Of a stretch of DNA of 64,000 nucleotides, positions 23,385-63,245 are shown piece after piece. Position 1 is the first letter of the stretch, and every line of letters starts with the position of its first letter. The notes below the pieces were generated by a model. The model had not been told where the DNA came from. It did no database searches and was given only the letters and a program-made list of their open reading frames with translations. The translations under genes were made by a program, and so were the position numbers. The stretch is from Desulfosudaceae bacterium (lineage in GTDB: Bacteria; Desulfobacterota; Desulfobacteria; Desulfobacterales; Desulfosudaceae): contig CAXXDV010000001.1 of the NCBI GenBank assembly GCA_963674745.2, forward strand, positions 480,001-544,000, in the 5' to 3' direction.

Positions 23385-24464
23385 TTAATACCCGGCATTT
23401 TTCAAACGATTGGCATGCTGACGGTACAGTTCCACCTCGTTAAAGAAAGGATTGGTCATTTCCCAGAGCAGGTTGGTCTCATCCAGGTGGTTCATGGGGT
23501 AGTTATCGCGAATCACTTTGCCCCAGTGGGATTCAGGGGCATTTACCAGGCCATCTGTCTGGATGGGCTCACCGGAGAGGGTGCCTATGGTGGCAGCGGC
23601 CAGCAGGGCGGCATCAGAAGGATCAAGCGGGTTTGTCAACACCTGGGTGCCCGACCAGGAGTAATATCCGATTCCGTTTTCACCCACTTCAGGCCCCTGG
23701 CCGCCCCAGCGGTCCGGTCGACCGATGGAGTAGAGGCGGTTGAAATATTCCTTGCGCTCATCAAAACCACTGTCGGCAGCAGCATCAACGGGAAAACCGT
23801 AAAGCTCGTAGGCGCTGTTTACAGCCTGCTGGGAAACCCTGGCCGCCTCCCTTAAGGAAGCCAGGTCGGAATTAACATCACTTGTTCCTTGCGGTACGGT
23901 CCAGCGAATGCCGCCGGCATCCATAAAAATCAGCTCGGTCAACTGGCAATCGATGCCGCACGAAAAATCAACGGGATTCGGCGGGTTCGGGTTGTCCCGG
24001 TCATCGGTATCGTTTGACCCGCCCACTGTACTGACGGACGCGACCAGGTCCGGTCGGACAGCGGCCACATACCTGGATGTCGGCGCGCCGAAACTGTGAC
24101 CGATGAGATTGAACTTTTGATGACCTTTCAAGGCCCTGATGAAATCAAGCTCATGAATAAGTTGTTCGCCGCGGATTTCCGGGGAATTGAGCGCGGAAAC
24201 CTGCGCCACGTAAACGGTTCCGCCGCTGCGCATGATTTCATACGGAATAGTGGGCCAGTAATCGGTATCAAGAAAGCCAACAATATCCGTGTTGTCAAAC
24301 CCCATACTGCCGTGCACCAGCACCATCGGATAAGCTGTTTTGGTGTATGTATCGGGCGGCGGCGGGGTTGGCCCGAAGGCAAACGCCGTATACGAAACAA
24401 GCATGGTGGTCAGGGTAAACAACATAGCGATGACTGTTTTTTTGATCAAGGATTCTGCTTTCAT
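23385..24464 (-). CDS. lipA: Secreted triacylglycerol lipase, Pseudomonas/Burkholderia family I type
   Basis: YTKTAYPMVLVHG, RGEQL, NLIGHSFG nucleophile, RYVAAVRPDLVASV, DGLV, MNHLDE, YRQHANRLKNAG; 29-aa signal + PTPPPP. Confidence 0.9.
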   Translation of the reverse strand: MKAESLIKKTVIAMLFTLTTMLVSYTAFAFGPTPPPPDTYTKTAYPMVLVHGSMGFDNTDIVGFLDTDYWPTIPYEIMRSGGTVYVAQVSALNSPEIRGEQLIHELDFIRALKGHQKFNLIGHSFGAPTSRYVAAVRPDLVASVSTVGGSNDTDDRDNPNPPNPVDFSCGIDCQLTELIFMDAGGIRWTVPQGTSDVNSDLASLREAARVSQQAVNSAYELYGFPVDAAADSGFDERKEYFNRLYSIGRPDRWGGQGPEVGENGIGYYSWSGTQVLTNPLDPSDAALLAAATIGTLSGEPIQTDGLVNAPESHWGKVIRDNYPMNHLDETNLLWEMTNPFFNEVELYRQHANRLKNAGY

Positions 24465-24479
24465 TCGGGTGGTTCCCCT

Positions 24480-25574
24480 TTAATTTTCGTTGTTATGATT
24501 TTTTACGCGATACCGTTCAATCACGGCCACACGCATTCGCTCTGTTTCGGAAAACGCGCTGGCCTTTATTTCTTCTATCAACTCTTTTTTGTCGCCTTCG
24601 GGCCAGTCGGCGGCATTAATCTGATCCACCTCTTCAAAGAAATCGTTCAAACGGGACTTCCATACGCGGTTTCTTTCATCCAGCGCTGCCATCCGCTGGG
24701 CTGCATCATACCCGTAATCGGCCAGCCGCCTGTCATACAGTTCGTCATCGGACAGCGACTCTTCCTGCCAGGCTTTTTCTTTGTTTATAGACCCACTCAC
24801 CTGTTCGTGATTGCGGATGATCTCCTGCTGCATTTCCGGCAATTGGCTTCTCAGTTCCTCTATCCGGCGTTGTTTTTCTTCGTCCGGCAAATCCGCAAGG
24901 CTCAGTTCCAGGCGGGCGATATTGTAGGCCTGGTAATTTTCCTCACTTTCAAAAAACACATCGCTGTATTCCTGACCGAAGTGACGCTTACGGGCTTCCG
25001 CCAGGTACGCATGATATGCTTTCAGGTAATCAACCAGATCCCGGCCGTAAATATTATATACATCCGTGTTATCAGAAGCCCCGTATTCTGCCAGATCCCG
25101 GTTATAGGCCATAAACTTCTGCAGCAGCGCCCGTGCCTGTTCGGCCGCCTTGGGTGAAAGCTTGCTGTCAAGATACTGCTCCATATTGGCGGCAATCTGT
25201 TCGGGTGTTTTTTCGCCAAGCGCTGAAAAAAAATAATCAAAGAGGTCCTTAAAACCGATGTCTACAACCAGGTTGCCGTTTTTGTCCTCCTGCAACCGGC
25301 CGTCGATTTCCGTGTCATGCTGGGACGGTGATATCAGCGCTGACGCCGGCAAAGGACGTTCTGCCGGAGGCGCCTGGTCAGTCGGAAGCGGGGTGGTTTT
25401 CTTTTCTTCTATGGGCACCGGGCTTGAAAGCGCGTTCGCAGGTAAATCAAGAGAGGCTTGTTTGGCGGGTATAGGCGACGGTGAGTCGCTTTGCATCCAG
25501 TATATCAAGCCGGCAATAATAAAAAATACGGCAGACGCGGATAAAAAATATTTTATTTTTTCCTTAAAAATCAT
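24480..25574 (-). CDS. Lipase-specific foldase (Lif/LimK chaperone)
   Basis: N-terminal TM anchor, Pro-rich linker, TEIDGRLQEDKNGNLVV, KDLFDYFFSALGE Lif motif, AAQRMAALDERNRVWKSR; ATG 25574 with AGGAG RBS. Confidence 0.88.
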   Translation of the reverse strand: MIFKEKIKYFLSASAVFFIIAGLIYWMQSDSPSPIPAKQASLDLPANALSSPVPIEEKKTTPLPTDQAPPAERPLPASALISPSQHDTEIDGRLQEDKNGNLVVDIGFKDLFDYFFSALGEKTPEQIAANMEQYLDSKLSPKAAEQARALLQKFMAYNRDLAEYGASDNTDVYNIYGRDLVDYLKAYHAYLAEARKRHFGQEYSDVFFESEENYQAYNIARLELSLADLPDEEKQRRIEELRSQLPEMQQEIIRNHEQVSGSINKEKAWQEESLSDDELYDRRLADYGYDAAQRMAALDERNRVWKSRLNDFFEEVDQINAADWPEGDKKELIEEIKASAFSETERMRVAVIERYRVKNHNNEN

Positions 25575-25668
25575 GGCCACTCCTGAACCCTTTTTACGCC
25601 AGCCACGCAAACTGCTGTCCGATATTGACAATAACGCCGGGCTTCGCTAACGTTATCAGTCTTTATTT

Positions 25669-25784
25669 AGCATTAATCGTGCCAGAATAATTATATATAA
25701 ATTTCAGGCTGTTAACATTTGAGCCAAAACAATCTTGCCAAATAGCAAAAGCTTTCTTACCAAATAGCAGAGGCTCTCATATAT
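25669..25784 (-). promoter_or_regulatory. sigma54 promoter cassette P2 (foldase-lipase operon)
   Basis: TGGCACGATTAATGCT (25669-25684); TTTCAGGCTGTTA at 25702; CCAAATAGCA at 25738 and 25760. Confidence 0.88.
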
Positions 25785-25913
25785 GATAGGTTCAAGGGTG
25801 AGCATTCGCCAATGAGAATTATCGGCCGGGTCCCAGGCCAGGCAGGGAACGTATTTGTGCCGTTCTTTTAGTGACATGTTCTCTTTTTGAGCGTTTGAAT
25901 GCCGCTGAAAAAT

Positions 25914-25948
25914 TTAGGCCCCTCAAAGCATTTCTTTGAGGGGCCTAA
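25914..25948 (-). terminator. Intrinsic terminator of esterase-phosphatase operon
   Basis: Perfect 15-bp stem TTAGGCCCCTCAAAG/CTTTGAGGGGCCTAA followed by ATTTTT on minus strand. Confidence 0.75.
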
Positions 25949-27096: not shown

Positions 27097-28812
27097 CTAA
27101 AAGATAAAACCCGACTCGGACAGGTCCTCACGAATCAGGCGAGGACTAAGTCCATCAAAGGGCTGGGCATCCCAGAATGCCCGTGTTGCACCGTCCGGAT
27201 CATTCTTCAGCCGGCTGGTTGCGTCTGAGCCTTTTGCGTTAAAAAGCATGGTCGGGCGATCACAGGTATTGTAGGGGCGCCATTCCGGCATGTTGGCATG
27301 GTTGGGATTTCCGGTTTTGGCAAACGAAGCCCAGGCGTCCATCATCTGGTTCTGAAGGCCTTGCGGAATACCATTTTCTCCGTAAAGCTCAGGCCAGCCT
27401 TCGGGATACCCCGTGACAAAGGCCAGTTCTGAACCGTGCGGCGACCCGAGGTTCAGGAAGGGATAGTCGGGAGCGGGAGGATTCCAGTCAAACCGGTAGA
27501 CAAAAACGTTGCCGGGCTGATGCGCGACTTGCGCTTCCGCCTGCCTGAGTGTGGGAATCCGCAGGAAAGCATCCGTCATCATGGCCAGAGACACAAGATT
27601 CGGCGAGATAACAAGTTCAGGATTGTAAAAGTAGTACAGGGCAATCCCCTCCGCGGCTGTTTTATTGTCAGGAATACACCTTTCAAAATAGGGAAACGCG
27701 GTCATTAGTGCCAGTGGTGTCGCAACCGGCAGCGCTAGCAGCGCGTTTTCCGCCATCCACCATCGTCCCTCGTCCTTTGTGGTTCCCACAAGCAGGGGGA
27801 TATTTGATGATCGTCCATTGGCAATGGCCTGCAGGGGCGGCTCCGGAAAGACTGTACCGTCGATAACCCCGGCATAAATGTTCTCCGGCAGAAGAGTGGT
27901 TTCCATTACCTGTTCCTGTGCGGCCATCACCTGCTGCCAGCTGAGCTGGCGCAGTTCTGCCAGGGTGTTGACTCCTGCATACTGAAAAAGCAATTCTGTT
28001 GAACGCCGGGCATAGGGTTTCCTTCGAATCGTTGAACTCCCGCCGCTCTGTCCGATCGCTTTATGAAACAGGCCTTCGGCAGCCGGCATGCCAAGAAGCG
28101 CGCACACGCTGTAACTCCCGGCGGACTCTCCAAAGATGGTTACATTATCGGGGTTTCCGCCAAAGGCGGCAATATTGTCCTGAACCCAGCGAAGGGCCAG
28201 AACCTGGTCGAGCAATGCGGCGTTGCCGCTGCCCGGAACGTCGTCAAAAAAACTGAAACCAAAGGCGCCGAGCCGGTACTCTACACTGACGACCACGACA
28301 TTCTCGCGCGCCGCCAAACGGGCACCACAGTAAAGCTTATCACCCGAGCTCTCCCATAAATAACCACCGCCATGGATCCAGAACATGACGGCCCTGTCCT
28401 GGTCATCCACCGAAGGCGTCCAGACGTTCAGGGTGAGGCAGTCCTCATCGATATTCGAGTTCATTACGTCGCTTGGTTCGATTTCCTGCTGCGGGCAGGC
28501 CGGCCCGAAATCCATTGCATCAAGTATATCTGCCCAGGATTCAGGCGGCACCGGAGGGGCAAATCTCAGCTCGCCGACAGGCGGCTTCGCATAGGGAATT
28601 CCCAGAAAAGCAACGACACCTTCATCGGCAATAAACCCTTTGACATCACCGTATATTGTCTGCGTCTGGGTTATTCCGTTTCCAATCGGCGCTGGAGGAA
28701 CAGGCTCGGGTTCAGGCGGTTCTGAGCCTTTTGCATAGGAAAACCCTGGAATCGCCAAGGAAAAAGAAATAACTGTTAACATAGCCAGAATAAAAATGGT
28801 TACATTTTTCAT
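27097..28812 (-). CDS. Secreted type-B carboxylesterase/lipase
   Basis: FLGIPYAKPPVGELRF, EDCLTLNVW, WIHGGG, FGESAG nucleophile, GTTKDEG, HGSEL; signal peptide + EPPEPEPVPPAP. Confidence 0.93.
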   Translation of the reverse strand: MKNVTIFILAMLTVISFSLAIPGFSYAKGSEPPEPEPVPPAPIGNGITQTQTIYGDVKGFIADEGVVAFLGIPYAKPPVGELRFAPPVPPESWADILDAMDFGPACPQQEIEPSDVMNSNIDEDCLTLNVWTPSVDDQDRAVMFWIHGGGYLWESSGDKLYCGARLAARENVVVVSVEYRLGAFGFSFFDDVPGSGNAALLDQVLALRWVQDNIAAFGGNPDNVTIFGESAGSYSVCALLGMPAAEGLFHKAIGQSGGSSTIRRKPYARRSTELLFQYAGVNTLAELRQLSWQQVMAAQEQVMETTLLPENIYAGVIDGTVFPEPPLQAIANGRSSNIPLLVGTTKDEGRWWMAENALLALPVATPLALMTAFPYFERCIPDNKTAAEGIALYYFYNPELVISPNLVSLAMMTDAFLRIPTLRQAEAQVAHQPGNVFVYRFDWNPPAPDYPFLNLGSPHGSELAFVTGYPEGWPELYGENGIPQGLQNQMMDAWASFAKTGNPNHANMPEWRPYNTCDRPTMLFNAKGSDATSRLKNDPDGATRAFWDAQPFDGLSPRLIREDLSESGFIF

Positions 28813-28869: not shown

Positions 28870-28985
28870 AGCATTAATCGTGCCATAAAAATTACCCATA
28901 AAATTCAGAATGTTAATATTTAAACCAAAACAATACTGCCAAATAGTAAAACTCTTCTTGCCAAATAGTAAAACCTTCTCTATAT
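28870..28985 (-). promoter_or_regulatory. sigma54 promoter cassette P3
   Basis: TGGCACGATTAATGCT (28870-28885); ATTCAGAATGTTA at 28903; TGCCAAATAGTAAAAC direct repeat with 22-bp period. Confidence 0.88.
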
Positions 28986-29007
28986 GATAGATTCAAGGAT
29001 GATAATT

Positions 29008-31083
29008 ATGAAAAAACAAAATCTTCTTGATGAAAGCGCCCTTCAGGAAGAGCTGGGTGATATTTTCAGCTGTCTTTCAAGTCAGATTCCCGCGAATACG
29101 ATCAATTGGGTCCAGTCGCATTTTGATCCGATGGTCATAAGGATTATCGGACAGGCGTCAGACACCGGCGGAGAAAAGACCAATTTCATTTACGACGTCC
29201 CCGAAAAGATCGCAGCGATTTTTCAAAGTGACGCCCTGCCCGAAATCCACCTGATAAACCACCCGGAAAGAGATCCCCTGGGAAAAGAGATATCCAGGCG
29301 CGCCAAACGCTTTGACTGGTCGGCCCTGGTTATTAATTTTCGAAACCGCTCGGATACGCTATGCTCGGCAATAGTCTATGCGGATGGAAAGGACCGGTAC
29401 AAGGAAGAACATATCCGCCTGGTCACCCCCCTTAAGATGCGCCTTCAACAAGTTATGGACGTCCTCATTGCGGACAATGAAAAGAAAGGCCTGAACCCCA
29501 CTGAAAAAGAACCGGTTAAGGACAAAAATGAATTTTTTCGCCAGGTCACCCTGCGATTATGCGGCCATCTTGACCCTCAAACCGGTGTTTCCAAATGCCT
29601 CCAATACATCAGCCGCTTTATGCCGGCCGACGCGCTCTTTGTCAGACAGCTGGAGCCGGAATTTCAATCGGAACGCGTGCTCGCGGAAAGTTTTGGTGTA
29701 TTTCATCAACAGACAGGAACCCTGATTCCTCTGGTCCCGGAAAAACGGAACACCGCCCTCAGGCGGGGGGCCGACAGGCGAAGAATCCCCCGGATACGCA
29801 TTATCAACCAGCCGGACCAATCTGCCGCCACGCAGCCCTATGTGCAAATATTCGGCAATGACTTTTCGTGTATTTCCATGCCGCTTATCCATGGGAAAAA
29901 GCCCATTGGCCTGGCCGTACTGGGCCTGGAAGGCAGGGACCGCTACCGGGAAGCGCATCTGCAACTTTTCTCGCTGCTTCATGATCCGCTTGTCCTGGCC
30001 CTGTCAAACAACATCAAACACCGGGAAGTCATCCGGCTGAAAAACCTGATCGAGGAGGAAAAAACAGACCTGGCCGAAGAGCTGCATTACACGGCGGCAG
30101 ACACCATTATCGGCGGCAGCCTGGGCCTGGAGGCCGTCATGGAAAAGGCCCGCCTTGTCGCTGATCAGGACAGTCCGGTGTTGCTGTCCGGCGAAACCGG
30201 CACGGGTAAAGAAATCATCGCCAATTTTATCCATCAGAAGTCCGCGCGGAAAGACGGCCCCTTCATCAAGGTCAATTGCGGTGCGATACCGGATACACTG
30301 GTGGACAGCGAACTGTTCGGTCATGAAAAGGGCGCATTCACCGGCGCAGACGCCCCCAAAAAGGGCCGCTTTGAAAGGGCTGACAGGGGAACGATTTTTC
30401 TGGATGAAATTGCCGAATTGCCCCTGGCCGCCCAGGTCCGCCTGCTGCAGGTACTGCAGCATAAAATAATCGAGCGCGTCGGGGGTACGGACGCCAAATC
30501 CGTCGATATCCGTATTGTCACCGCCACCCACCGCAACCTGGAAGAACTGGTCGCAAAGGGCCGATTCCGTGAAGATTTGTGGTTCCGGCTGAATGTTTTC
30601 CCCATACAGATCCCCCCCCTGCGATCAAGGACAATGGATATCCCGGCCCTGGTGGATTATTTCATTGACAAAAAGTCGCTTGACTTGAAGCTTCACACCA
30701 AACCGTCCCTGAGTCCGGACGCAATGAAGCGGTTGATGTCCTATGAATGGCCGGGAAACGTCCGTGAACTGGAAAACGTCGTTGAAAGAGAATTGATCCT
30801 GAACAAGGGAGAAGCCCTCACGTTTCATCATATCAACCCCCGGCAAACAAGTGACGGGGAAACCGACGATGTCATGACAGAAGAGAATATCCTGTCCCTT
30901 GATGAAGTTTTTACCCGTTACGTTAAAAAAGTTCTGGGCCTGTGCGACGGTAAAATCAGCGGCCCGCACGGCGCCGCGAAAATGCTTCAGGTAAACCCGA
31001 GCACGCTCCGCAACAGGTTGAAAAAAATGGGAATCCCCTACGGTTGGAACCCAAAAAAACCGCTTAATCGGGATACGCAATGA
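29008..31083 (+). CDS. sigma54-dependent activator (bEBP), type A, pair 2
   Basis: Same architecture as 14092; GAFTGA; ATG 29008 has AAGGA RBS (alternative start 28984). Confidence 0.95.
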   Translation: MKKQNLLDESALQEELGDIFSCLSSQIPANTINWVQSHFDPMVIRIIGQASDTGGEKTNFIYDVPEKIAAIFQSDALPEIHLINHPERDPLGKEISRRAKRFDWSALVINFRNRSDTLCSAIVYADGKDRYKEEHIRLVTPLKMRLQQVMDVLIADNEKKGLNPTEKEPVKDKNEFFRQVTLRLCGHLDPQTGVSKCLQYISRFMPADALFVRQLEPEFQSERVLAESFGVFHQQTGTLIPLVPEKRNTALRRGADRRRIPRIRIINQPDQSAATQPYVQIFGNDFSCISMPLIHGKKPIGLAVLGLEGRDRYREAHLQLFSLLHDPLVLALSNNIKHREVIRLKNLIEEEKTDLAEELHYTAADTIIGGSLGLEAVMEKARLVADQDSPVLLSGETGTGKEIIANFIHQKSARKDGPFIKVNCGAIPDTLVDSELFGHEKGAFTGADAPKKGRFERADRGTIFLDEIAELPLAAQVRLLQVLQHKIIERVGGTDAKSVDIRIVTATHRNLEELVAKGRFREDLWFRLNVFPIQIPPLRSRTMDIPALVDYFIDKKSLDLKLHTKPSLSPDAMKRLMSYEWPGNVRELENVVERELILNKGEALTFHHINPRQTSDGETDDVMTEENILSLDEVFTRYVKKVLGLCDGKISGPHGAAKMLQVNPSTLRNRLKKMGIPYGWNPKKPLNRDTQ

Positions 31084-33158
31084 AGAACAAGCCGGATATT
31101 GTTTCAAACCAGGTCAAACAGCATGTCGCTTCCGGCGGGGATATCTATGAGGCGGTGCACGCCCATTTCGATTCTTTTCAAAAATATCTTCCCGCGGAAC
31201 GAATGAGCCTGTGTATGCTCGATTTTGAACAGAAAAACCTACGAATCATTGCCCAGGCCAGTAAAACGGGCGGTGAAAAAACAGATTTTAACATTCCGGT
31301 GCCCGAAGAGCTCCTGGCTGCTTTTAATTTGGACGACCTGCCTGAAATTTACATGGTCAATGAACCGGAATCAGACCCGCTCGGGCAGAATATTATCAAG
31401 CGATCGGGCTTCAAAAACTGGTCCCTGATAGGCATGCGGATTAAGAATCAGGAAGTCGCATACGGCGCCATATTTTTTACGACCAACGGCAAAAACAGGT
31501 ATACGGATAAACATGCCGCTCTGCTCTCAGATTCATATGATGCACATGAATGGTTTCTGAAGACTGTTGTCAAGGACCATGGGGACAAAACCGGCGGCCT
31601 TGATCAAAAAGAAACGGCGGAAGATAAATATGAATTCTTCCGTCAGGTCACCCGGCGGTTATGCGGACACCTTGATATGGAAACCGGTGTTCTCCATTGT
31701 TTCCAATATCTCAGCCGCTTTTTTCAAGCGTCCATGCTGTCCGTCCACAAGCATCACAAGTCGGATGATACCGATATTATCGGGGTCGGACCTACCCATT
31801 TTTTTAATTATTTCGATCCCGGTATGATCGCCAGGGATACAGAAAGCCACAGTCCGAGGGAAATAACGATCGCCCCCAAAACAGTCATTATCAACAACCC
31901 CGAAAACGATCCTACCCTGAAACGGGCTTTAGACATGTTCGGAAGCAACTGGTCGTCGATTACCATGTATCTTTCTCACAAGCGGGTCCCGCTCGGTCTT
32001 GCATCTATTGTCACGGAAGGGAGAGACGCTTTTTCAGAGGCGCACAGAAAACTATTCGCCATGCTCCATGACCCGTTTGCCCTGGCGCTTTCCAACCATA
32101 TCAAACACCGGGAAGTCATCCGGCTGAAAAACACCATTGAAGATGAAAAAAAGAACATTCAGGATGAGTTACATTTCTCCAGGGAAGTCACCATTGTCGG
32201 CGGCACTTCAGGCTTAAAGGGGGTCCTGGAAAGTGCCCGGGTTGTCGCCCGTCGGAACAGCCCGGTACTATTGTCAGGAGAGACGGGTGTGGGCAAAGAA
32301 ATCATCGCCAATTTCATCCACCATCAATCTTCACGAAAAAGCGGCCCCTTGATCAAAGTCAATTGCGGCGCCATACCGGACACCCTGGTGGACAGCGAAC
32401 TGTTCGGTCATGAGAAAGGGGCTTTCACCGGCGCTGAGGCCCGAAAAAAAGGCCGTTTTGAAAGGGCCGACGGCGGTACGATCTTTCTGGATGAAGTCGC
32501 GGAACTGCCCCCCCCGGTCCAGGTCCGCATGCTGCGGGTCCTGCAGAATCAAATCATCGAGCGGGTCGGCGGGACAGGGTCTATACCCGTTAATATCCGG
32601 ATCATTGCCGCCACCCACCGCAACCTGGAAGAATTGGTCGCCGCCGGCAGATTCCGGGAAGACCTGTGGTTCCGTCTGAATGTGTTTCCCATCCATATCC
32701 CCCCCCTGCGATCCCGGCGATCGGACATTCCGGCACTGGTAGATTTCTTCATTGATAAAAAATCCCGCGAAATGAATTTCCATGTTGTACCGTCGCTTTC
32801 TCCGGATGCAATGAAGCGCCTTGTCGCGTATGAATGGCCGGGGAATATCCGCGAACTGGAAAATGTTATTGAAAGGGAACTGATCCTGAAAAAGGGCGAA
32901 CTGCTCACCTTTGAGAGTCTGATCCCCTCGCGCCCGGCAAACAACCCCCTGGATAATGTAATGACAAAAGACGATGTCCTGCCCCTTGATGAGATCTATA
33001 CCCGTCATATCAGAAAAGTCCTGGAGATAACCGGCGGAAAGATCAGCGGCCCGGGCGGTGCGGCGGAAAAGCTGAAAATAAAACCGGGGACCCTCCGCAA
33101 ACGGATGGACAAACTGGGAATTGATTACGGGTGGAAGAAACAGGATAAAACGACGTGA
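31080..33158 (+). CDS. sigma54-dependent activator (bEBP), type B, pair 2
   Basis: ATGA overlap with partner; GETGVGKE, GAFTGA, HTH. Confidence 0.95.
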   Translation: MKNKPDIVSNQVKQHVASGGDIYEAVHAHFDSFQKYLPAERMSLCMLDFEQKNLRIIAQASKTGGEKTDFNIPVPEELLAAFNLDDLPEIYMVNEPESDPLGQNIIKRSGFKNWSLIGMRIKNQEVAYGAIFFTTNGKNRYTDKHAALLSDSYDAHEWFLKTVVKDHGDKTGGLDQKETAEDKYEFFRQVTRRLCGHLDMETGVLHCFQYLSRFFQASMLSVHKHHKSDDTDIIGVGPTHFFNYFDPGMIARDTESHSPREITIAPKTVIINNPENDPTLKRALDMFGSNWSSITMYLSHKRVPLGLASIVTEGRDAFSEAHRKLFAMLHDPFALALSNHIKHREVIRLKNTIEDEKKNIQDELHFSREVTIVGGTSGLKGVLESARVVARRNSPVLLSGETGVGKEIIANFIHHQSSRKSGPLIKVNCGAIPDTLVDSELFGHEKGAFTGAEARKKGRFERADGGTIFLDEVAELPPPVQVRMLRVLQNQIIERVGGTGSIPVNIRIIAATHRNLEELVAAGRFREDLWFRLNVFPIHIPPLRSRRSDIPALVDFFIDKKSREMNFHVVPSLSPDAMKRLVAYEWPGNIRELENVIERELILKKGELLTFESLIPSRPANNPLDNVMTKDDVLPLDEIYTRHIRKVLEITGGKISGPGGAAEKLKIKPGTLRKRMDKLGIDYGWKKQDKTT

Positions 33159-34075: not shown

Positions 34076-34080
34076 TGAAT

Positions 34081-38395: not shown

Positions 38396-39895
38396 TTATT
38401 CCAACACTAATGTGGTTGCGCCCTGGCCGAATTTCGGCCCGGCAAAGGTGGTCATTTTCAGGTTGGTCAGGTCAAAAAGAGTGGTGCTTTGGTGGACCGA
38501 ACTGTTCGGGCCCTGGCCATCGGCAGTATACATCCAGTTAATAAAGTCGAGCGCCTTGTTGTAATCATATGTGCCGTAATCCTTCTTGAGCAGAGGGATC
38601 ATTTTGTCATAGCGTCTTTTGGAATCGCTATCCACATAGGTGCCGGTAAGCGAGTTCATATTAAGCGCCAGAAAATGGTTTGTCTGTATCAGAGCATCTC
38701 CATAGGTTTCCTGCTGGTCAACACCATATAAAATGGGTACAAGGGAATTCTGCCGATGGTTCAAGTACCGGCAAGCGTAATTGTGCGCCGACACCTCCAG
38801 GGACACGCCGCCCCGGTTGGCCCCTTGCCCGTCGGCAATGGCATATATCCAGGAAGCACCCCGCTTGGATTTTTCGATCATCGAAACGGCCTCGGGCAAC
38901 TCATTGGCCTTTTCCATGACCCAGCGGGCGGTCAGCAGGCATCCCATACCGACATCACCGGGCACACAATCAAAGGCCGGCACCATGTCCATGCCGATGC
39001 CAAGGCCTTTTTCATTCATGGCGGCGATGCACCCTACCAGTCCGGCCACACCGACATTGATCACCCGGTTTTTGTCCTTGCCGCAGGTCTCGATAATAAC
39101 CGGGTGGTCGGAAAACCCCTTGCCGCCGAACATGAAGTCCCGGCCAAGATAGAGGTTTCCGGTCTTGGTGGCGTTGCCGTCCAGGATATGCGCGTTGCAA
39201 GACAGGCTAAGGCTGTCAAGCAGCTCCCCGGTTTTAACAAGCGTGACCATAATCGGATAGCCGGCGCTTAAGAAGGCATCAAAACCCACATTGAGAAGCA
39301 GGACATCTTCGTAAGGAAGATCTATCCCTCTTGCCCGGGCGCCGTCAGAAATACCGCGCATTTCGTCCCTGTATTCTTTTGGAATATACTGTGAATTGAA
39401 CAATGCGATTTGCTTGAAAGTGAAAAGCAGTATATCCGCGAGCGACGTATCGGGAAAATTCGAGATATCCATACCCAGAGATTCCAGGAGAACTTCCGCT
39501 ATCGGTTTTAAAAATATATTTACATCGATACCTGTATTCCCGCCTATCATGCTGGTGCCGAGATCTAAGTAGAAATCTTCGGCTGCAACCGCCTTGCACT
39601 TTTCCGGAATCAGATACCCTTGCTGGTAGCCCATTTCATATCCGCTGCCTTCCAGGTGAAGGAAGGGCTGTTTATGTCCCGTATCCGTGATGATATATTC
39701 CAGATAGCCTTTTCCGCCGGGTGCGTACGTGCGATCGACGTGGAGGCCGGGCCCAGGGCCGTCGACGACGGGCTGGGGTGGTGGTGGTGGCGGGGGTTTG
39801 GGTGCAAATGCAAATGCAGTGGTTGCCTGAAAAAACAGACACAGGGTAATCATTAATAAAACAAACAGCTTACCAGACAAACATTTTTTCCTCAT
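38396..39895 (-). CDS. Secreted C45/Ntn-hydrolase (acid ceramidase/NAAA-like autoproteolytic amidase), copy 1
   Basis: LHLEGSGYEMGYQQG, EMRGISDGA, S|CNA nucleophile, GRDF, AMNEKGL, QTNH; 29-aa signal + poly-Pro. Confidence 0.82.
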   Translation of the reverse strand: MRKKCLSGKLFVLLMITLCLFFQATTAFAFAPKPPPPPPPQPVVDGPGPGLHVDRTYAPGGKGYLEYIITDTGHKQPFLHLEGSGYEMGYQQGYLIPEKCKAVAAEDFYLDLGTSMIGGNTGIDVNIFLKPIAEVLLESLGMDISNFPDTSLADILLFTFKQIALFNSQYIPKEYRDEMRGISDGARARGIDLPYEDVLLLNVGFDAFLSAGYPIMVTLVKTGELLDSLSLSCNAHILDGNATKTGNLYLGRDFMFGGKGFSDHPVIIETCGKDKNRVINVGVAGLVGCIAAMNEKGLGIGMDMVPAFDCVPGDVGMGCLLTARWVMEKANELPEAVSMIEKSKRGASWIYAIADGQGANRGGVSLEVSAHNYACRYLNHRQNSLVPILYGVDQQETYGDALIQTNHFLALNMNSLTGTYVDSDSKRRYDKMIPLLKKDYGTYDYNKALDFINWMYTADGQGPNSSVHQSTTLFDLTNLKMTTFAGPKFGQGATTLVLE

Positions 39896-39979: not shown

Positions 39980-40096
39980 AGCATTAATCATGCCGAAAAA
40001 ATTATTCCATAATATTCAACAGGTTGCTATTTTCACAGCCCCCGGGCTTCGAAATATGAAAGAATTAACTGTGAAATATGAAAAGTTGCCATATAA
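39980..40096 (-). promoter_or_regulatory. sigma54 promoter cassette P4
   Basis: CGGCATGATTAATGCT (39980-39995); ATTCAACAGGTTG at 40014; GAAATATGAAA at 40051 and 40073. Confidence 0.85.
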
Positions 40097-40119
40097 TAGA
40101 AAATCAGATTGGATACGCT

Positions 40120-42186: not shown

Positions 42187-42257
42187 TACACATATTTCAT
42201 GGACTGTTCTGAAATCCTGATCATCGGCCCATTGCAAGGCGCAAGGCATGCATACAC

Positions 42258-42345
42258 GTAGGGGCACCCCCCTGTGGGTGCCCTTCTATCGGGCGGCCAC
42301 GGGGGGGTGCCCTTCTATCGGGCGGCCACGGGGGGCCGCCCCTAC
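42258..42345. repeat. GTAG-type REP doublet (REPIN) with internal 29-bp tandem duplication
   Basis: GTAGGGGCACCCCCCTGTGGGTGCCC ... GGGCGGCCACGGGGGGCCGCCCCTAC; GGGTGCCCTTCTATCGGGCGGCCACG at 42276 and 42305. Confidence 0.75.
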
Positions 42346-42363
42346 TAATAATTGGTGAACGAT

Positions 42364-56956: not shown

Positions 56957-58300
56957 TTATTCGTTCCACCATGACGGCTCGTAAACTTCAGTAGTAACAG
57001 GAATCGTCCACCTGGAAAAGAATTCCCAGATCCTTCGGGCGTAATCAGACTGGCTGGCAACGCCGTCTTTGCCACCCATCAGCGGACCCTCGAAACCATG
57101 GCCCTGCGAGTTGAGTATCTGGCGGACTTCCACACCGCCGGCACAATCCTGGTAGGCGCGTATCCATTTATAGTCCAGATGATCCTGCGACCGAGTCGAG
57201 TCGCTGTTATCGGCGAGTACGGTGTATTCACCCGTGCATTCATTCACTTCGGCCCAGCGGTGCCATCCCCTGTAGCCCCCATTGGACTGAGACCCAATAA
57301 TCGTGGTAGCGCACACATCATTCCAGCAATTCACCTGGTCATTGTATCCATGAATGCCCAGAAAAGGCACAGGGTGGTAACCGCTGTCGCCTTTGTGGTT
57401 CAGTGCATTATTTTTCAGCCATTGGTCAAAGGCAAAGGAATTGGCCGAGATCGCCGCGATGTGAGCGGGTGCCCGGTAGCCCAGGTAGTGGCTCATGGCG
57501 CCGCCGTTGGAAAACCCCATGGCATAGATCTTTCTGGCATCAATCCGGACGTTGTCCTTGATGTAGTCTATCATTTCCGTAATAAAGGCGACATCGTTTA
57601 TGCCATTGTCTTTAGCGTACCCACAACAGGTCCCGCCATTGAACGAGTCATTGAAACCCTGGGGCCAGGCAACAATGAAGCCCTTCGTCGCTTGCGCCAG
57701 GGCCCGCATCCCCGAAGACCCTTTCTGGGTTTCTTTGTTCGCATACAAAGAATGGATGTCGACTATCAGAGCAGGCCTTTCAACGATCTCCGGGGGGATA
57801 TAGACATCAAATATCCTTTTGCCTTCAGGTCTCTGGATGGAACAGCCGGCGTTCATCCCCTCATACAGGTTGCCGTCAGGAGCGAATACAGGAGCGCCCG
57901 TAGCCATGGGCTCCACTGTAAAAGCCGCTTTCTGCTCGAGGCTGTAACTGTCATTATAAAAAAGCCGCGCCTCGTAGCTGCCGACGTCCAGGCCCTGGAA
58001 GTACATGATTCCGTTGGACTCACCGTCCGTATAAAACCATTCCCCGTAGTCGTGGTTGTCGGCTCCCGCCGGGTAAATCGATATCCAGTTTTTTTGCCCC
58101 CCCGGAAGATTGGCGAAGTAGACAACGATCCTTTCACCCTCTAAATAGACGTTCCTGCCCGTTTCCAGGCGTGGTGATCCGGAGGGCGGTGGCGGCGGCG
58201 GTTCAGGCCCTAATGCAAGCACAGCCGCTGAAGGCAGGAGCAGGAACAGGGTGATCGTTGACAGGATAAACGATTTTTTTAACAAGCTTTTTTTCTTCAT
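56957..58300 (-). CDS. Secreted PHB-depolymerase/LpqP-like esterase with N-terminal Ig-like (SKICH-like) domain
   Basis: 29-aa signal + GPEPPPPPP; FIVAWPQG, FNGGTCCG, NDVAFI, GFSNGG, HGYND, GHG. Confidence 0.82.
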   Translation of the reverse strand: MKKKSLLKKSFILSTITLFLLLPSAAVLALGPEPPPPPPSGSPRLETGRNVYLEGERIVVYFANLPGGQKNWISIYPAGADNHDYGEWFYTDGESNGIMYFQGLDVGSYEARLFYNDSYSLEQKAAFTVEPMATGAPVFAPDGNLYEGMNAGCSIQRPEGKRIFDVYIPPEIVERPALIVDIHSLYANKETQKGSSGMRALAQATKGFIVAWPQGFNDSFNGGTCCGYAKDNGINDVAFITEMIDYIKDNVRIDARKIYAMGFSNGGAMSHYLGYRAPAHIAAISANSFAFDQWLKNNALNHKGDSGYHPVPFLGIHGYNDQVNCWNDVCATTIIGSQSNGGYRGWHRWAEVNECTGEYTVLADNSDSTRSQDHLDYKWIRAYQDCAGGVEVRQILNSQGHGFEGPLMGGKDGVASQSDYARRIWEFFSRWTIPVTTEVYEPSWWNE

Positions 58301-58375: not shown

Positions 58376-59692
58376 TTAATTGAAATTAGTCACAAACCCG
58401 AACGGCTGGGTGTAGGAATCGCCCTTTTTGCCGTCCAGTACGGCGCGGACGAACGGTTGATGGGTGTAATCTTCATAATCGAAGGTCGTTCCGGTTCCGA
58501 CGGTTGTCGTGCCGGGGCCGACCCAGTAAATCTGCTGATACCCCGTGGCGGATATCGTGATCGTCTTGGCGGCCTCGTCCACGATGATGCTGTTGATGCG
58601 CGGCACTTTCGCCTCGCCTGACCCGCCTGGTTCCATACAGAAATAAAACGCACCGTCCTGCATGCATTGCCTGAGTTCGGTCTCGGTGAGCGCCGGCATC
58701 AGCATAAACTGGAAGGCATGGTAAAGGTCATCTGAAGTGTGTTTATCATCGTTTGCAAAGCCCCAGACCATTTTGTCTTCGTATGGAAATATGTACTCGT
58801 TGATGTTGTCCCATAAATAACGGTCATCCTGGTAATAATCATCCCGGTTGATCACTTCCAGGCCGATGCAGGTGTCGTAATCGCTGTACCAGTGGATGTA
58901 CCACTCCCATTCCGACGGCACATGGTATCTTCCCGGATGGGCGATAAAGGACAGGCCGCCGCTTGACTGGACGTGGGGGATGCCGTTTTGGAGATTACTG
59001 CTGGAAGTTGAAAAGTTGAACAAAGCATTCATGTGGTGTGAGTTCGAATATTCATCGCCTTTCACTGCCAGCATATTCAAAGAAGACGGATTTCTGCCAT
59101 AGTCCGTCCAGGGCCAGGTGATCGCGTTGTGATCCGTCAGGGCAAGGATTTTGTACCCGGCCGAGTGATATTGATCGATGGTTTGGGCCGGACTGTGATC
59201 ACCGTCGCTCTCGGTGGTATGGGTGTGAAAGTTGGCCTTGTACTGATTGTAAGTCGACCAGTTTACCCCGTCATAGGGATTCAGGGTGCAGTCCACCTCC
59301 GGATCACCTCCGGCAACGACCGTAAACGACACCTCTGTCTCAAGGTTGTAACTGTCGTCATAGAAAAGCCTGGCCTCGTAACTGCCGGGGGGGTGGAAAT
59401 TGAAGTACATCGTACCGCTCGTCGCACCGAGCGTATAATACCACTCCCCGTAGTCAGTGTTATCGGCTCCGGCTTCGTAAATACCGATCCAGTTTCTGTC
59501 GCCACTTGAAACATTGCTGTAGTTGACAACGATTGTCTCGTATTCCGCATAGACCGACTGGCTCATTTCCAGTTGTGGTTCCGGAGGTGGCGGCGGGGGC
59601 GGGAGAGCGAATACAGCGGCTGATTGTAAAACGAGAAAAAGGGTAAGCAACGACAAAACAAACGATTTTGTCAGCAGTCTTTTTTTCTTCAT
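58376..59692 (-). CDS. Secreted PHP-family phosphoesterase with N-terminal Ig-like (SKICH-like) domain
   Basis: 29-aa signal + LPPPPPPPEP; NFHTHTTESDG, LTDHN, AHPGR, GFANDDKH. Confidence 0.82.
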   Translation of the reverse strand: MKKKRLLTKSFVLSLLTLFLVLQSAAVFALPPPPPPPEPQLEMSQSVYAEYETIVVNYSNVSSGDRNWIGIYEAGADNTDYGEWYYTLGATSGTMYFNFHPPGSYEARLFYDDSYNLETEVSFTVVAGGDPEVDCTLNPYDGVNWSTYNQYKANFHTHTTESDGDHSPAQTIDQYHSAGYKILALTDHNAITWPWTDYGRNPSSLNMLAVKGDEYSNSHHMNALFNFSTSSSNLQNGIPHVQSSGGLSFIAHPGRYHVPSEWEWYIHWYSDYDTCIGLEVINRDDYYQDDRYLWDNINEYIFPYEDKMVWGFANDDKHTSDDLYHAFQFMLMPALTETELRQCMQDGAFYFCMEPGGSGEAKVPRINSIIVDEAAKTITISATGYQQIYWVGPGTTTVGTGTTFDYEDYTHQPFVRAVLDGKKGDSYTQPFGFVTNFN

Positions 59693-59758: not shown

Positions 59759-59876
59759 AGCATTATTTGTGCCAAAAAATTAATATACACTTTTCAGTTG
59801 GTTACAATTTTGCCAGGAAAATAATTATTAAATAGGGAAATAATTATTACGAAATAGAGAAATGCGTCTCTATTTC
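59759..59876 (-). promoter_or_regulatory. sigma54 promoter cassette P5
   Basis: TGGCACAAATAATGCT (59759-59774); TTTCAGTTGGTTA at 59792; AAATAG at 59830 and 59852; perfect palindrome GAAATAGAGA-N6-TCTCTATTTC. Confidence 0.87.
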
Positions 59877-60061: not shown

Positions 60062-61561
60062 TCAGGGCATCAGGTATGTTGTTGCCCCCAGTCCAAATGT
60101 CGGCCCGGCCAGGGTCGTCATTTTCAGGTTGGTCAGGTCAAACAGCGTGGTGCTTTGCTCGACACCGTCGGCGGGGCCCTGGTTGTTGGCTTCATACATC
60201 CAGTTGATGAAGTCAAAAGCCTTGTTGTAGTCATACGTTCCGTAATCCTGCCTGAGCAGGTCGATCATGCCGTTATAGCGAACATCCGAATCGCCATCGA
60301 CATAGGTGCCGGTAAGCGAATTCATATCAAAGGTGAGAAAATGATTGGTCTGTATCAGGGCGTCGCTGTAATTTTCCTGCTGGTCAATACCAAATAAAAT
60401 GGGCACGAGAACATTCTGCTGATGGTTCAAGTACCTGCAGGCGTAATTGTGCGCCGACACCTCCATGGACACGCCCCCCCGGTTCGCCCCTTTGCCGTCG
60501 GCAATGGCGTACATCCAGGAAGCCCCCCGCTTGGAATTTTTGATCATCGAAACCGCCTCGGGCAGTTCATCAGCCTTTTCCAGGACCCGGCGGGCGGTCA
60601 GCAGGCAGCCCATACCGACATCACCGGGCGTGCAATCAAAGGTCGGCACCATGTCCATGCCGATGCCGAGGCCTTTTTCATTCATTCCGGCGAAGGACCC
60701 TACCAATCCGGCCACAGCGACACTGACCATCCGGTTTCTGTTCTTGCCGAAGGTCTCAATAATAACCGGATGGTCGGAAAAACCGGCCCCGCCGAACATG
60801 AAATCCCGGCCAAAATAGAGATTGTCCGTAATGGTGGCGTTACCATCCAGGATATGCGCGTTGCAGGACAGGTTAAGGGTATCAACCAGTTCCCCGGTCT
60901 TGACCAGAGTGACCATAATCGGATAACCGGCGCTTAAAAAGGCGTCAAAACCCACATTGAGAAGCAGGACATCTTCGTAAGGAAGATCTACCCCTCGTGC
61001 CCGGGCGCCGTCGGAAATGCCGCGCATTTCGTCTCTATATTCCTGTGGAATATACTTTTCATTGTACAACGAAATTTGCTTGAAAGTGAAAAGCAGTATG
61101 TCCGCGATAGACGTATCGGGATAATCCGAGATTTCCAGGCCCAGAAATTCCAGGAGCACTGCCGCTATCGGCTCCAATAATATGTCCGTCGGAATGCCTC
61201 CATGCCCGCCTATCATGCTTTCGCCGATACTGATATAAAAATCCTCACAGGCAACTGCCTTGCATTTTTCCGGAATCAGGTATCCCTGCTGGAAGCCCAT
61301 TTCATATCCGCTGCCTTCCAGGTGAAGAAAGGGCTGCTTATGCCCCGCATCCGTGACAATATATTCCAGGTATCCTTTCCCGCCGGGCGCGTATGTACGA
61401 TCGACCCGGAGGCCGGGTTGGGGTTCAGGCGTGGCCTGGGGTGGCGGTGGCGGTGGCGGTGGCTTGGGTGCAAACGCAAAAGCAGTGATTGTCTGAAAAA
61501 ACAGAAACAGGATTAGCATTGATAGAACCATCGCTTTTGTAAACAGGCTTTTCTTACTCAT
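60062..61561 (-). CDS. Secreted C45/Ntn-hydrolase, copy 2 (close paralog of 38396-39895)
   Basis: Long identical stretches with copy 1; NLS|CNAHILDG; ATG 61561 with AAGGAG RBS. Confidence 0.82.
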   Translation of the reverse strand: MSKKSLFTKAMVLSMLILFLFFQTITAFAFAPKPPPPPPPPQATPEPQPGLRVDRTYAPGGKGYLEYIVTDAGHKQPFLHLEGSGYEMGFQQGYLIPEKCKAVACEDFYISIGESMIGGHGGIPTDILLEPIAAVLLEFLGLEISDYPDTSIADILLFTFKQISLYNEKYIPQEYRDEMRGISDGARARGVDLPYEDVLLLNVGFDAFLSAGYPIMVTLVKTGELVDTLNLSCNAHILDGNATITDNLYFGRDFMFGGAGFSDHPVIIETFGKNRNRMVSVAVAGLVGSFAGMNEKGLGIGMDMVPTFDCTPGDVGMGCLLTARRVLEKADELPEAVSMIKNSKRGASWMYAIADGKGANRGGVSMEVSAHNYACRYLNHQQNVLVPILFGIDQQENYSDALIQTNHFLTFDMNSLTGTYVDGDSDVRYNGMIDLLRQDYGTYDYNKAFDFINWMYEANNQGPADGVEQSTTLFDLTNLKMTTLAGPTFGLGATTYLMP

Positions 61562-61613
61562 TCTTTTCTCCTTCGGTCTATTGGTTGTTTGGATGTTGAA
61601 CACTCAAGGGATG

Positions 61614-63245
61614 TCACGGCAAAGACCACTGGGAAAGAAAATCCCATATTGTCCGGGTGACATCGATTCCCTGGTCATTTTGACCGTAAGTTGCATGGTT
61701 GATGCCGATCTTCAGCATTTCTGTCGTAACGCCGCCGTCACAGTTACAATAGGTTTTACGCCATGAAGGCAATAAGATCGGATTGGGTGAAAAATAATAC
61801 TCGGTCTCATAGCCGCCCTGGCACCCGTTGATTTCCGCCCACCTGTGGAAACCGGGTTCAATCGTGCCGGTAATGGGCATGAATATCGGCAGCACTTCAT
61901 CACGATTGCCGAGAACCATCATTATCGGTACCGGACGGGCCGGGGTGTCCCAGATGACCCAGCGGGAAAACGAGTGGGCCGTAGGAACGAGCGCGGCAAA
62001 GACGTCGGCCTGCTTCAGGCCGAGCTGATGAACCATGCCGCCGCCGTTGGAATGGCCCTGGGCATAGATGCGGTCGGTATCCACGTCCGCCCTTGCCGCG
62101 ACCCAAAGCACCAGGCTCCGCAAAAACCCGGAATCATCCAGGCCCACACCCAGAACATCTGATGCGGGCGGGCAGCAGATAACGCCATTCCAGGCGTTAG
62201 ACCATCCCTGCGGCGCGACCCAGACAAACCCTTTTTCTTCTGCCAGCGCCTTGAAACCGTGCCACTGCGTGCCTTCTTTCGTCCCGCCCATGCCATGCAG
62301 ATCCAGCAGCAGCGGGGCCGGACCGGTCAGGTTGTAAGGGACATAAACATCGACATACCTTTCCGTATTCCAGCCGTCTTTATAATGGTAGACGAGATTT
62401 TGATGGAAGCCGGGCTCAAGAGGTTCAGGGCCGGGAAGAATTTCCACCGTGAACATGTCGTTGGGCTGGCTGATGGCGCTGCTGCAGGCGCAGACTTCGT
62501 CGTCGTAGCGGACTTTCACGTTTTTACCATGATAGCCTAAGAGTCCTATGCTGTCGCCGTCCTGCAGGCAACCTCCCGGGTTGCTCAGGTTGATCAGCTT
62601 GAATCTTTCCCATTTCCCGGCCTCGATCCGGTCGGCATCAAGGTCGCCGTCAGGCCGGGCACTGAAATAATGCCTGGCAGTGGTGCGGATATTAACGGTT
62701 GTCCCGTCCCGCAAACCGTCACTGCCGCTGATGATGAACATCTCTTCCACCCAGTCGTCGGCAATGTTTCTGTTGGCTTTAATGTTTTGTCCTCCACTGG
62801 TGGTTTGCACCCCGACATATTTGCCATTGCGTTGAGAAAGAAAAGAAACATACTTTTGGGTAACCGCTTCCGCCGGCTCCAGGGGTTCGACTGTAAAAGC
62901 CACCGTATACTCAAGATTGTAGCTGTCATTATAGAAAAGCCTCGCCTCGTAACTGCCGGCGTCCAAACCCTGGAAGTACATGGTTCCGCTCGAAGCACCA
63001 AATGTATAATACCATTCCCCGTAGTCGTAGTTATCGGCGCCCGCTTCGTAAATCGATATCCAGTTTTTTTCGCCATCCGGAAGATTGCTGTAATTGACAA
63101 CGATCGTTTCGCCCGGCACATAGACCGTATCGCTCATTTCAAGCCGTGGTTCAGGCTCTGCAAATACACCCGCTGACTGGAGAAGCAGAAAAAGGGTAAT
63201 CAATGACATGGTTGCTGTTTTTGTTAACAAGCTTTTTTTCTTCAT
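61614..63245 (-). CDS. Secreted PHB-depolymerase/LpqP-like esterase with SKICH-like and fascin-like domains
   Basis: 29-aa signal; Ig-like domain; beta-trefoil repeats (NGKYV..., ANR, ADRIEAGKWERFKL); DLHG, WNGVICC, GHSNGG. Confidence 0.8.
   Translation of the reverse strand: MKKKSLLTKTATMSLITLFLLLQSAGVFAEPEPRLEMSDTVYVPGETIVVNYSNLPDGEKNWISIYEAGADNYDYGEWYYTFGASSGTMYFQGLDAGSYEARLFYNDSYNLEYTVAFTVEPLEPAEAVTQKYVSFLSQRNGKYVGVQTTSGGQNIKANRNIADDWVEEMFIISGSDGLRDGTTVNIRTTARHYFSARPDGDLDADRIEAGKWERFKLINLSNPGGCLQDGDSIGLLGYHGKNVKVRYDDEVCACSSAISQPNDMFTVEILPGPEPLEPGFHQNLVYHYKDGWNTERYVDVYVPYNLTGPAPLLLDLHGMGGTKEGTQWHGFKALAEEKGFVWVAPQGWSNAWNGVICCPPASDVLGVGLDDSGFLRSLVLWVAARADVDTDRIYAQGHSNGGGMVHQLGLKQADVFAALVPTAHSFSRWVIWDTPARPVPIMMVLGNRDEVLPIFMPITGTIEPGFHRWAEINGCQGGYETEYYFSPNPILLPSWRKTYCNCDGGVTTEMLKIGINHATYGQNDQGIDVTRTIWDFLSQWSLP

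Follow-up and report, generated by a model that had tools for sequence, protein, structure and literature searches.

A predicted sigma-54 promoter, signal peptide and proline tract shared by hydrolase genes of a Desulfosudaceae bacterium

Why should enzymes with unrelated catalytic domains begin, in one sulfate-reducing bacterium, with nearly the same signal peptide, and why should a run of prolines follow it? The question arises from a 64,000-nucleotide stretch of a Desulfosudaceae genome (contig C1:480001-544000 of the 5.55-Mb genome G000; hereafter, the window), where six hydrolase genes encode a 29-residue leader followed by a proline-containing stretch. An earlier note on this DNA had proposed a portable leader module that would act as a sorting, secretion or docking tag, guard against aminopeptidases or impose an EF-P-dependent pause. 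Those functions are conjectural, but our analysis supports the module itself in a stronger form: the 5' ends of at least 10 genes, in the window and elsewhere on contigs C1 and C3, are homologous as DNA, precede unrelated catalytic domains, and lose their similarity sharply after the proline tract. As judged from the sequence, the shared unit consists of a predicted sigma-54 promoter, the 5' untranslated region, a ribosome-binding site, the leader and the tract. We lean, by somewhat more than even chances, toward regarding it as a duplicated and recombined regulon and export cassette with a proline spacer, shared by unrelated hydrolases.

The leader family in the window and the genome

The six reading frames and their N-termini are as quoted in the earlier note, and the proline tracts that it placed behind other leaders in a carboxylesterase and a GH31 glycosidase are likewise present. 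These genes and that of the lipase chaperone are listed below in window coordinates.

23385..24464 (-): lipase, family I.1/I.2-like (Pfam Abhydrolase_1); 29-residue leader, FGPTPPPP, then the start of the mature fold
24480..25631 (-): lipase-specific chaperone Lif (PF03280, E=6e-41); gene 1 of the lif-lipase operon
27097..28812 (-): carboxylesterase (PF00135, E=2e-118); leader outside the family, then the proline-rich tract KGSEPPEPEPVPPAP
38396..39895 (-): C45 hydrolase "a" (NF040521, E=2e-34); leader, then FAPKPPPPPPPQP
45629..47848 (-): GH31 glycosidase (PF01055 and PF21365); 23-residue leader of another kind, then FAPPPPEP
56957..58300 (-): polyhydroxybutyrate (PHB)-depolymerase-type esterase "A" (NF050058, E=8e-33); leader, LGPEPPPPPP, then a shared N-terminal module
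58376..59692 (-): PHP-family metallohydrolase (NF038032, E=3e-14, and PF02811); leader, LPPPPPPPEP, then the shared N-terminal module
60062..61561 (-): C45 hydrolase "b" (NF040521); leader, then FAPKPPPPPPPPQ
61614..63245 (-): PHB-depolymerase-type esterase "B" (NF050058, E=1e-30); leader, then EPEP only; gene 1 of its operon

The six leaders start at 24464, 39895, 58300, 59692, 61561 and 63245 on the minus strand, and each ATG has a GGAGG-like ribosome-binding site 6-12 nt upstream. For four of the six, the longest open frame begins farther 5', yet the ribosome-binding site belongs to the leader ATG. The earlier description of these enzymes as four unrelated families is fair by Pfam and NCBIfam (lipase, C45, esterase and PHP), but it does not hold over the full length of the proteins: after the tract, both esterases and the PHP protein have in common an N-terminal module of ~100 residues with 57-69% identity (residues 1-132/150 of esterase A are common to esterase B and the PHP protein). 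This module may be a substrate-binding domain; for its residues ~40-150, the Atlas offers a SKICH-like beta-sandwich at a score of 0.81, as a lead only. The two C45 hydrolases are 79% identical overall, 80% in their mature domains and 57% in the leader (16/28 aligned positions, residues 2-29).

A hidden Markov model (HMM) built from the six window leaders was searched against the 21,332 stop-to-stop frames of at least 80 residues in the whole genome. It retrieved 11 genes at E<=1.2e-3, and the next match stood at E=1.7. The five additional members are as follows.

C3:1601947-1602816: EEP-fold phosphoesterase (EEP)
C1:574910-575866: third PHB-depolymerase-type esterase (EstC)
C3:2513813-2515876: VolA/Pla-1-like phospholipase with an InlB B-repeat
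C3:2518579-2519649: chlorophyllase/dienelactone-hydrolase-like protein (DLH)
C3:2549568-2550749: 393-residue protein without a family (Unk)

For the last of these, a search found no PDB sequence match, and an AlphaFold model made without an alignment was unusable (mean pLDDT, 34). Across the 11 leaders, L18 is invariant, K9, T17, F28 and A29 occur in at least 10, and L6 occurs in 7. The invariance reported earlier for L6, K9, L18 and A29 is thus true of the six window leaders and becomes 7, 10, 11 and 10 of 11 genome-wide; the length of 29 residues likewise describes all six window leaders and 10 of the 11, one member having 28.

Leave-one-out profiles restricted to the 29 residues recovered 10 of the 11 leaders at E<=7e-4. 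The lipase leader alone was not recovered (rank 36, E=25), returned at E=2.7e-7 once its proline tract was included, and had no blastn match between its 5' end and the other members. By sequence comparison, five of the six window leaders are thus demonstrably homologous, and the lipase is a member by architecture (length, a few positions and the tract) without demonstrable homology of its leader. The concern that such leaders or tracts might be common among exported proteins is not borne out, as only these genes carry them: in an all-against-all comparison of 996 crude signal-like N-termini, the largest set of proteins alike at the N-terminus but not in their mature parts was the leader family itself, with 10 members, and the next sets had 4.

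Other N-termini of the genome are of note. Four large proteins (frames S12153, S14170, S16788 and S19691; 517-936 residues) share another N-terminus, ...LGL..IIGTGGG(G/S), followed by Gly-rich and DGDGYGD-type sequence, and their mature parts have no mutual match at E<=1e-5; this N-terminus may be another lineage-specific leader or anchor. A 508-residue protein without a Pfam family (L040, C1:1753976-1755502) has a signal-like N-terminus ending in LAFG before RGSTPPVPEPD and matches the extended leader profile weakly (E=0.024); it may be a twelfth, diverged member. The leaders of the GH31 glycosidase and the carboxylesterase were tried as members and rejected, since the extended and leave-one-out profiles gave E values of about 1 or no match; blastn of the GH31 5' end against the leader genes found nothing. 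By eye, the GH31 leader looks like the short C45 leader of a Desulfosudis oleivorans-like genome, a likeness that we do not claim.

The DNA cassette, its candidate regulators and its distribution

Alignment of positions -200 to +150 of the 11 leader genes shows that their resemblance extends upstream of the start codon. A sigma-54-type promoter sequence, TGGCAC-N5-(A/T)TGCT, lies 70-126 nt 5' of 8 of the 11 genes, and the other three are downstream genes in operons. These predicted promoters, like those of the lif-lipase operon and the carboxylesterase gene, show the GG at -24 and GC at -12 expected for sigma-54, spaced as TGGCAC-N5-TTGCW, and several have an enhancer-binding protein encoded nearby. 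One of them, TGGCACGATTAATGCT, is found at window positions 25669-25684, 53 nt 5' of lif, and the same sequence is found at 28870-28885, before the carboxylesterase gene; near-identical boxes in the window precede the lif-lipase operon, the carboxylesterase gene, a PilZ gene and an enoyl-CoA hydratase gene. Another predicted promoter, CGGCATGATTAATGCT, begins 100 nt 5' of the ATG of C45 "a", and the PHP gene and esterase B have predicted promoters of their own at 59759-59774 and 63338-63353, respectively.

The boundaries of the shared DNA are clearest between C45 "a" and the EEP gene, which lies on contig C3 and encodes an unrelated fold. These two genes are 81.6% identical over 255 nt, from -137 to +114, and have no similarity beyond codon 38. 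For most other pairs of members, similarity gives out at +107 to +115, where the proline tract ends too. The C45 "a" leader is also closer to the EEP leader (proportion of synonymous differences [pS], 0.28; of nonsynonymous differences [pN], 0.13) than to the leader of C45 "b" (pS, 0.45; pN, 0.24). Because the mature C45 domains are nonetheless 80% identical, this indicates transfer of the cassette between nonhomologous genes.

The candidate regulators are sigma-54 enhancer-binding proteins of one family, which has 13 copies in the genome, most of them oriented divergently to hydrolase genes. Three tandem pairs lie in the window, each protein having ~700 residues and a GAF-type N-terminal region.

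28984..33158 (+): tandem pair of sigma-54 enhancer-binding proteins (PF00158 and GAF-type N-terminal region), divergent from the carboxylesterase gene
40078..44439 (+): second tandem pair, divergent from C45 "a"
14092..18251 (+): third tandem pair, outside the region 23385..63245

Genome-wide, the carboxylesterase, C45 "a", EstC, DLH and Unk genes each have a divergent regulator copy beside them; of 9 regulator loci, 5 lie next to a gene with the leader or the tract. About 90 nt 5' of the sigma-54 promoter, at -160 to -215, five genes (PHP, esterase B, EEP, EstC and Unk) have a TTTCCCTATTTAACA-like box. It is a candidate activator-binding site, its count being circular because the regular expression was derived from the same sequences.

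Several neighboring genes deserve mention. Small PilZ-domain proteins are encoded beside hydrolase operons at 63615-63923 (-) and 37590-37949 (-), the former with its own TGGCACGATTAATGCT promoter, and a link between cyclic di-GMP and the regulon is possible. Between the carboxylesterase gene and lif, a 339-residue lipoprotein (25995-27014, minus strand; lipobox FPGC) has no Pfam match and contains a DHDNT motif (DxDxT, HAD-like); the Atlas clusters closest to it contain LNS2/APP1 lipid-phosphatase domains (score, just 0.76). The spacing of the carboxylesterase and lipase genes is alike in the related genome G007.

The leader is confined to Desulfosudaceae. The names attached to homologs assign the genome to this family, with D. 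oleivorans as the nearest named species, a relative that has versions of the lipase, carboxylesterase and C45 genes. Among 41 relatives, strong matches occur only in G002, of the same genus (C45 and lipase), and in G007 and G010, of one other genus (lipase), and nothing else among 301 genomes of the order scored better than E=1e-4; of six weak matches, the five inspected are ordinary signal peptides. A leader-plus-tract profile searched against 1.84 billion representative proteins gave nine matches at E<=1e-3, comprising six proteins or clusters of the genome itself, one related esterase from a metagenome, one fragment and one repetitive protein. A profile search of longer proteins returned, among the matches listed, only proteins of this genome and the lipase cluster. 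In two other genera, the leader of the C45 orthologs is 24 residues long but keeps the AFAP-polyproline junction, so 29 residues are not a fixed ruler. No EstC-type or DLH-type catalytic domain was found in the family's 12 other genomes, and EstC-type domains were found in just 3 of 400 other genomes of the phylum; this rarity fits the grafting of a cassette onto rare accessory enzymes. A foreign composition of the mature domains was considered and rejected, as GC content and GC content at third codon positions are genome-like.

In the reading that we favor, a 5' cassette of ~250 bp, with a sigma-54 promoter (often with an activator-like box), a leader RNA of 70-110 nt, a ribosome-binding site, a 29-codon signal and a (CCN)n tract, would have been copied and recombined onto hydrolases of unrelated catalytic domains within the Desulfosudaceae lineage, and the CCN repeat may double as the downstream crossover point. 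GAF-type sigma-54 activators, mostly divergent neighbors, would control the cassette promoters. The leader would be an ordinary SecYEG signal, cut by signal peptidase I after A-x-A, and its likeness among members would reflect common descent and normal purifying selection, with no special address. From the periplasm, the enzymes would exit through the type II secretion system (T2SS), as chaperone-dependent lipases do elsewhere. The genome has all the genes for such a system in one cluster (GspE, F, H, I, J, K, an L-like protein, M and D), as well as a further GspD, and Lif is encoded next to the lipase. The tract would form a stiff, protease-resistant spacer with an X-(A/G)-P mature N-terminus, and the cassette would be portable because this spacer insulates the cleavage site from the domain that follows.

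The leader as a predicted signal peptide and possible roles of the proline tract

The 11 leaders have the charged n-region, h-region and polar c-region of Sec signals cut by signal peptidase I: two to four K/R within residues 2-9, an h-region of ~13 residues at about 10-22, and Q/P-S at -7/-6. Position -3 is A or V, position -1 is A in 10 members and G in 1, and position +1 is F, L, S, V, A or E and never Pro (11/11); the small residues at -3 and -1 and the avoidance of Pro at +1 also hold in orthologs of the leader. None of the 11 has a Cys near the cleavage site, as a lipobox would require, or an RR pair in its n-region, as a Tat signal would. Models for YSIRK, KxYKxGKxW, ESPR and SipW-cognate signals and for C-terminal sorting domains matched none of 14 proteins (NCBIfam, E<=0.1; Pfam, E<=0.01).

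These features bear on whether the leader might be an uncleaved inner-membrane anchor, with the tract as its stalk, as in Lif and TonB or in the linkers of homologs from other taxa. Such stalks have parallels, in that gammaproteobacterial GH31 homologs are lipoproteins with ~45-residue linkers, linkers rich in Ser and Thr take this position in archaeal C45 homologs, and the second Lif of this genome (see below) has a membrane helix followed by QPAPEPSE. However, the -3/-1 rule is kept in all 11 leaders and in orthologs, as are the helix breaker at -6/-7 and the avoidance of Pro at +1, and an anchor would have no reason to conserve cleavage-site features; an h-region of ~13 residues is also short for a membrane span. 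We give the anchor very little credence.

Constraint on the leader is real but unexceptional. Over 45 nonindependent pairs of leaders, pooled pS is 0.54, near saturation, pooled pN is 0.33, and dN/dS is about 0.44. In paralog pairs, leader dN/dS is 0.18-0.42, compared with 0.25-0.37 for the adjoining folded domains, and this resemblance, with the 57% leader and 80% mature identity of the C45 pair, is what makes the constraint unexceptional. A dedicated signal peptidase was considered and rejected: of 13 family genomes, 10 have two matches to signal peptidase I, two have a single match and one has three, and this genome has no extra copy. Leader hydrophobicity is ordinary (13th-76th percentile of 986 crude signal-like N-termini), and, against this crude background set, it is not of the high kind typical of signals for the signal recognition particle (SRP). 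RNAalifold found no consensus structure from -40 to +90 of the 11 genes (-0.2 kcal/mol, 3 pairs), and in its absence, the conserved ACCCT of codons 17-18 is not explained by pairing with the ribosome-binding site.

The proline tract itself has 4-8 consecutive prolines in 10 of 11 members, beginning 2-5 residues after A-x-A, and esterase B is the member with only EPEP. Such runs are rare elsewhere in the genome. Among 3,508 open frames of at least 250 residues, 28 runs of at least 4 prolines occur, 11 of them within the 13 leader or tract genes, and these genes hold 6 of the 7 runs of at least 6 prolines and all 3 of at least 7.

Comparison with homologs shows the tract to be a lineage-specific N-terminal insertion, absent from homologs elsewhere. 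The lipase aligns with the chain of Pseudomonas aeruginosa LipA (1EX9) from query residue 39, equivalent to chain residue 2, so its residues 30-38 form an N-terminal extension. In C45 homologs from other families (Smithella and others; 51-62% identity), the conserved YxPDGKGYL block comes 0-2 residues after A-x-A in 10/10 complete N-termini; the six closest C45 homologs all have the tract. A Pro-rich stretch is present in 6 of 7 close GH31 homologs with complete N-termini and missing from one, and gammaproteobacterial GH31 homologs, with SGC or TAC lipoboxes, have the ~45-residue linker instead. Carboxylesterase orthologs in G002, G007 and G010 have a Pro-rich tract of variable sequence behind their own leader. 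Proline codons differ synonymously among orthologs, at third positions, and the C45 tract varies from 7 to 10 residues, which together show selection for proline at the protein level while the repeat length shifts. On contig C296 of G010 (locus L007), the lipase and the neighboring GH31 glycosidase share an identical FAMGSAPPPP junction (27/30 nt), and the carboxylesterase has MGSAPPEP. The nucleotide identity suggests local gene conversion at the junction, and the pattern resembles concerted evolution, inside one genome, of the junction between cleavage site and tract. A DNA pattern for A-x-A followed by PPPP was uninformative in five relatives, with counts equal to a reversed control.

Could the leader, the tract or both instead be a dedicated address that routes the hydrolases after Sec export, to the T2SS, the surface, vesicles or a scaffold with affinity for polyproline helices, as a Gram-negative counterpart of YSIRK? 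The tract is found almost only on exo-hydrolases and not on the periplasmic binding proteins of the window (21423-22826 and 51029-52444), it has been kept across genera behind three kinds of leader, the leader is as constrained as folded domains, and the identity of the G010 lipase and GH31 junctions could reflect coevolution with a reader of the tag. However, the T2SS secretin GspD occurs in 13/13 family genomes and so does not track the leader, and for the same reason, it cannot discriminate among the readings. Nor does signal peptidase I differ in copy number between genomes with and without the leader, and no Pfam or NCBIfam signal class was matched. The leader itself evolves no slower than the mature domains, has not kept its length in orthologs (24 residues) and is essentially absent outside the clade.

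A counterexample lies in the same genome. A second lipase-Lif pair (C3:2386957-2389219), in the order lipase then lif, is encoded beside another regulator copy, and its lipase has an ordinary leader that no proline tract follows (VSMA and then GGSNPDKCDTRYPVVLAHG). Esterase B has lost the tract, the sequence and length of the tract vary freely among orthologs, and one GH31 homolog is without it. EPEP alone in esterase B, one tractless GH31 homolog and a tractless second lipase argue against an obligatory role of the tract in secretion. We judge a dedicated address to be unlikely; a sorting role is possible but unsupported.

The position of the prolines also raises an effect on the ribosome. 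A run at codons 31-41 might stall translation in a manner dependent on EF-P, with the signal peptide inside the exit tunnel or only just emerging from it, throttling ribosome loading across the regulon or timing cotranslational targeting. Runs of at least three consecutive prolines, the EF-P-type motif, occur in 10 of 11 members, which would be candidates for stalling, and the genome's longest runs stand at one position in one regulon. A constant leader length would also fix the distance from start codon to tract. PMC5811046 provides precedents, in that polyproline motifs in Escherichia coli are enriched near translation starts and after transmembrane helices, and an early pause at codons 16-30, as cited there, aids membrane targeting. 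On the other side, weak tracts (PPEPEP and APPIEP) and the tractless esterase suggest that strong stalling is not required, and the tract starts anywhere from codon 26 to 33, depending on the leader. The leader is not of the highly hydrophobic SRP type, as ranked against the crude background, and there is no conserved RNA structure that would link this region to translation initiation. We regard a stall as the function of the tract as quite unlikely, a shade more doubtful than an address.

Several observations nevertheless count against the cassette-with-spacer reading. Its cleavage, secretion route and spacer function are inferred from sequence features, and the lipase leader, as described above, is not recovered on its own. 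Leader dN/dS is near that of folded domains, a stricter constraint than might be required of a merely generic signal peptide, and the length is exactly 29 residues in 10 of 11 leaders although synonymous sites are near saturation. The tract has been kept across genera behind leaders outside the family, in the carboxylesterase and the GH31 glycosidase, and is nearly exclusive to exo-hydrolases, which argues that it has a function of its own beyond being a mere junction. Up to ten consecutive prolines (7-8 in the genome's own genes) exceed what a spacer or a block to aminopeptidases would need, and homologs in other taxa function without a spacer. A bolder synthesis would take the leader and polyproline as a lineage-specific secretome tag on sigma-54-controlled lipid and polyester exo-enzymes, spread by grafting onto hydrolases as they were newly acquired, with either a common fate beyond the periplasm (T2SS recognition or surface docking via the polyproline helix) or a translational checkpoint gated by EF-P. 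We consider it rather improbable, but if true, it would give diderm exo-enzymes their first described portable, linear N-terminal tag for secretion or coordination.

Significance and comparison with known systems

The genome offers a natural experiment, with eleven enzymes behind one cassette, tracts behind other leaders, a tractless member and a second lipase with neither. This natural set allows a direct laboratory test of how a short N-terminal polyproline affects export, secretion, stability and translation. Even in its ordinary reading, the cassette clearly shows a regulatory and export module being reused in a bacterium much as exons are shuffled. It would also provide a ready-made, host-adapted secretion tag for hydrocarbon-degrading sulfate reducers, and the enzyme set (lipases, PHB-depolymerase-type esterases, a carboxylesterase and a phospholipase-like protein) is of interest for anaerobic degradation of polymers and lipids. 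Our literature search turned up no account of this leader, of polyproline following the signal peptides of secreted bacterial hydrolases, or of a sigma-54 promoter, leader and polyproline unit that diderm enzymes of at least four folds have in common.

Type II secretion substrates, which are defined by T2SS-dependent release, are not known to have a linear signal, and conserved signal peptides with extra information are known mainly from Gram-positive cocci. In the YSIRK/GxxS signal peptides of Gram-positive surface proteins, the conserved signal carries localization information (PMC5962339 and PMC11370438). The present leader resembles them in being a recognizable signal peptide common to proteins with unrelated mature parts. 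It differs in its diderm host, in forming one small family, in matching no curated signal model and in having no known effect on localization.

Sigma-54-dependent expression of lipase is known in Pseudomonas. The lipase at 23385-24464 resembles the Lif-dependent family I.1/I.2 lipases (1EX9; for B. glumae, PMC4717159) in that it aligns end to end with them, is adjoined by Lif and is accompanied by a T2SS. The solved I.1/I.2 lipases differ in starting at the residue after what is here the FGPTPPPP extension, and the gene order here is lif and then lipase. The tract itself recalls the proline-rich spacers of TonB and Lif, in which Pro, EP and KP runs form a stiff, extended segment beside a membrane-targeting helix. 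Those spacers lie between an anchor and a domain, whereas the tract would be a free N-terminus after cleavage. It likewise resembles EF-P-dependent polyproline motifs, in which consecutive prolines are known stall sites (PMC5811046), the resemblance here being one of sequence alone.

Parallels to the cassette as a whole come from multigene families. Mycoplasma variable lipoproteins, frog skin peptides and cone-snail toxins all combine a conserved 5' region and signal peptide with divergent mature parts. As in those families, the promoter or 5' untranslated region and the leader are inherited together here, and similarity ends soon after the cleavage site. In those families, however, the mature parts vary within a single kind and are short or repetitive, whereas the cassette described here precedes enzymes of different folds: alpha/beta, Ntn/C45, PHP and EEP.

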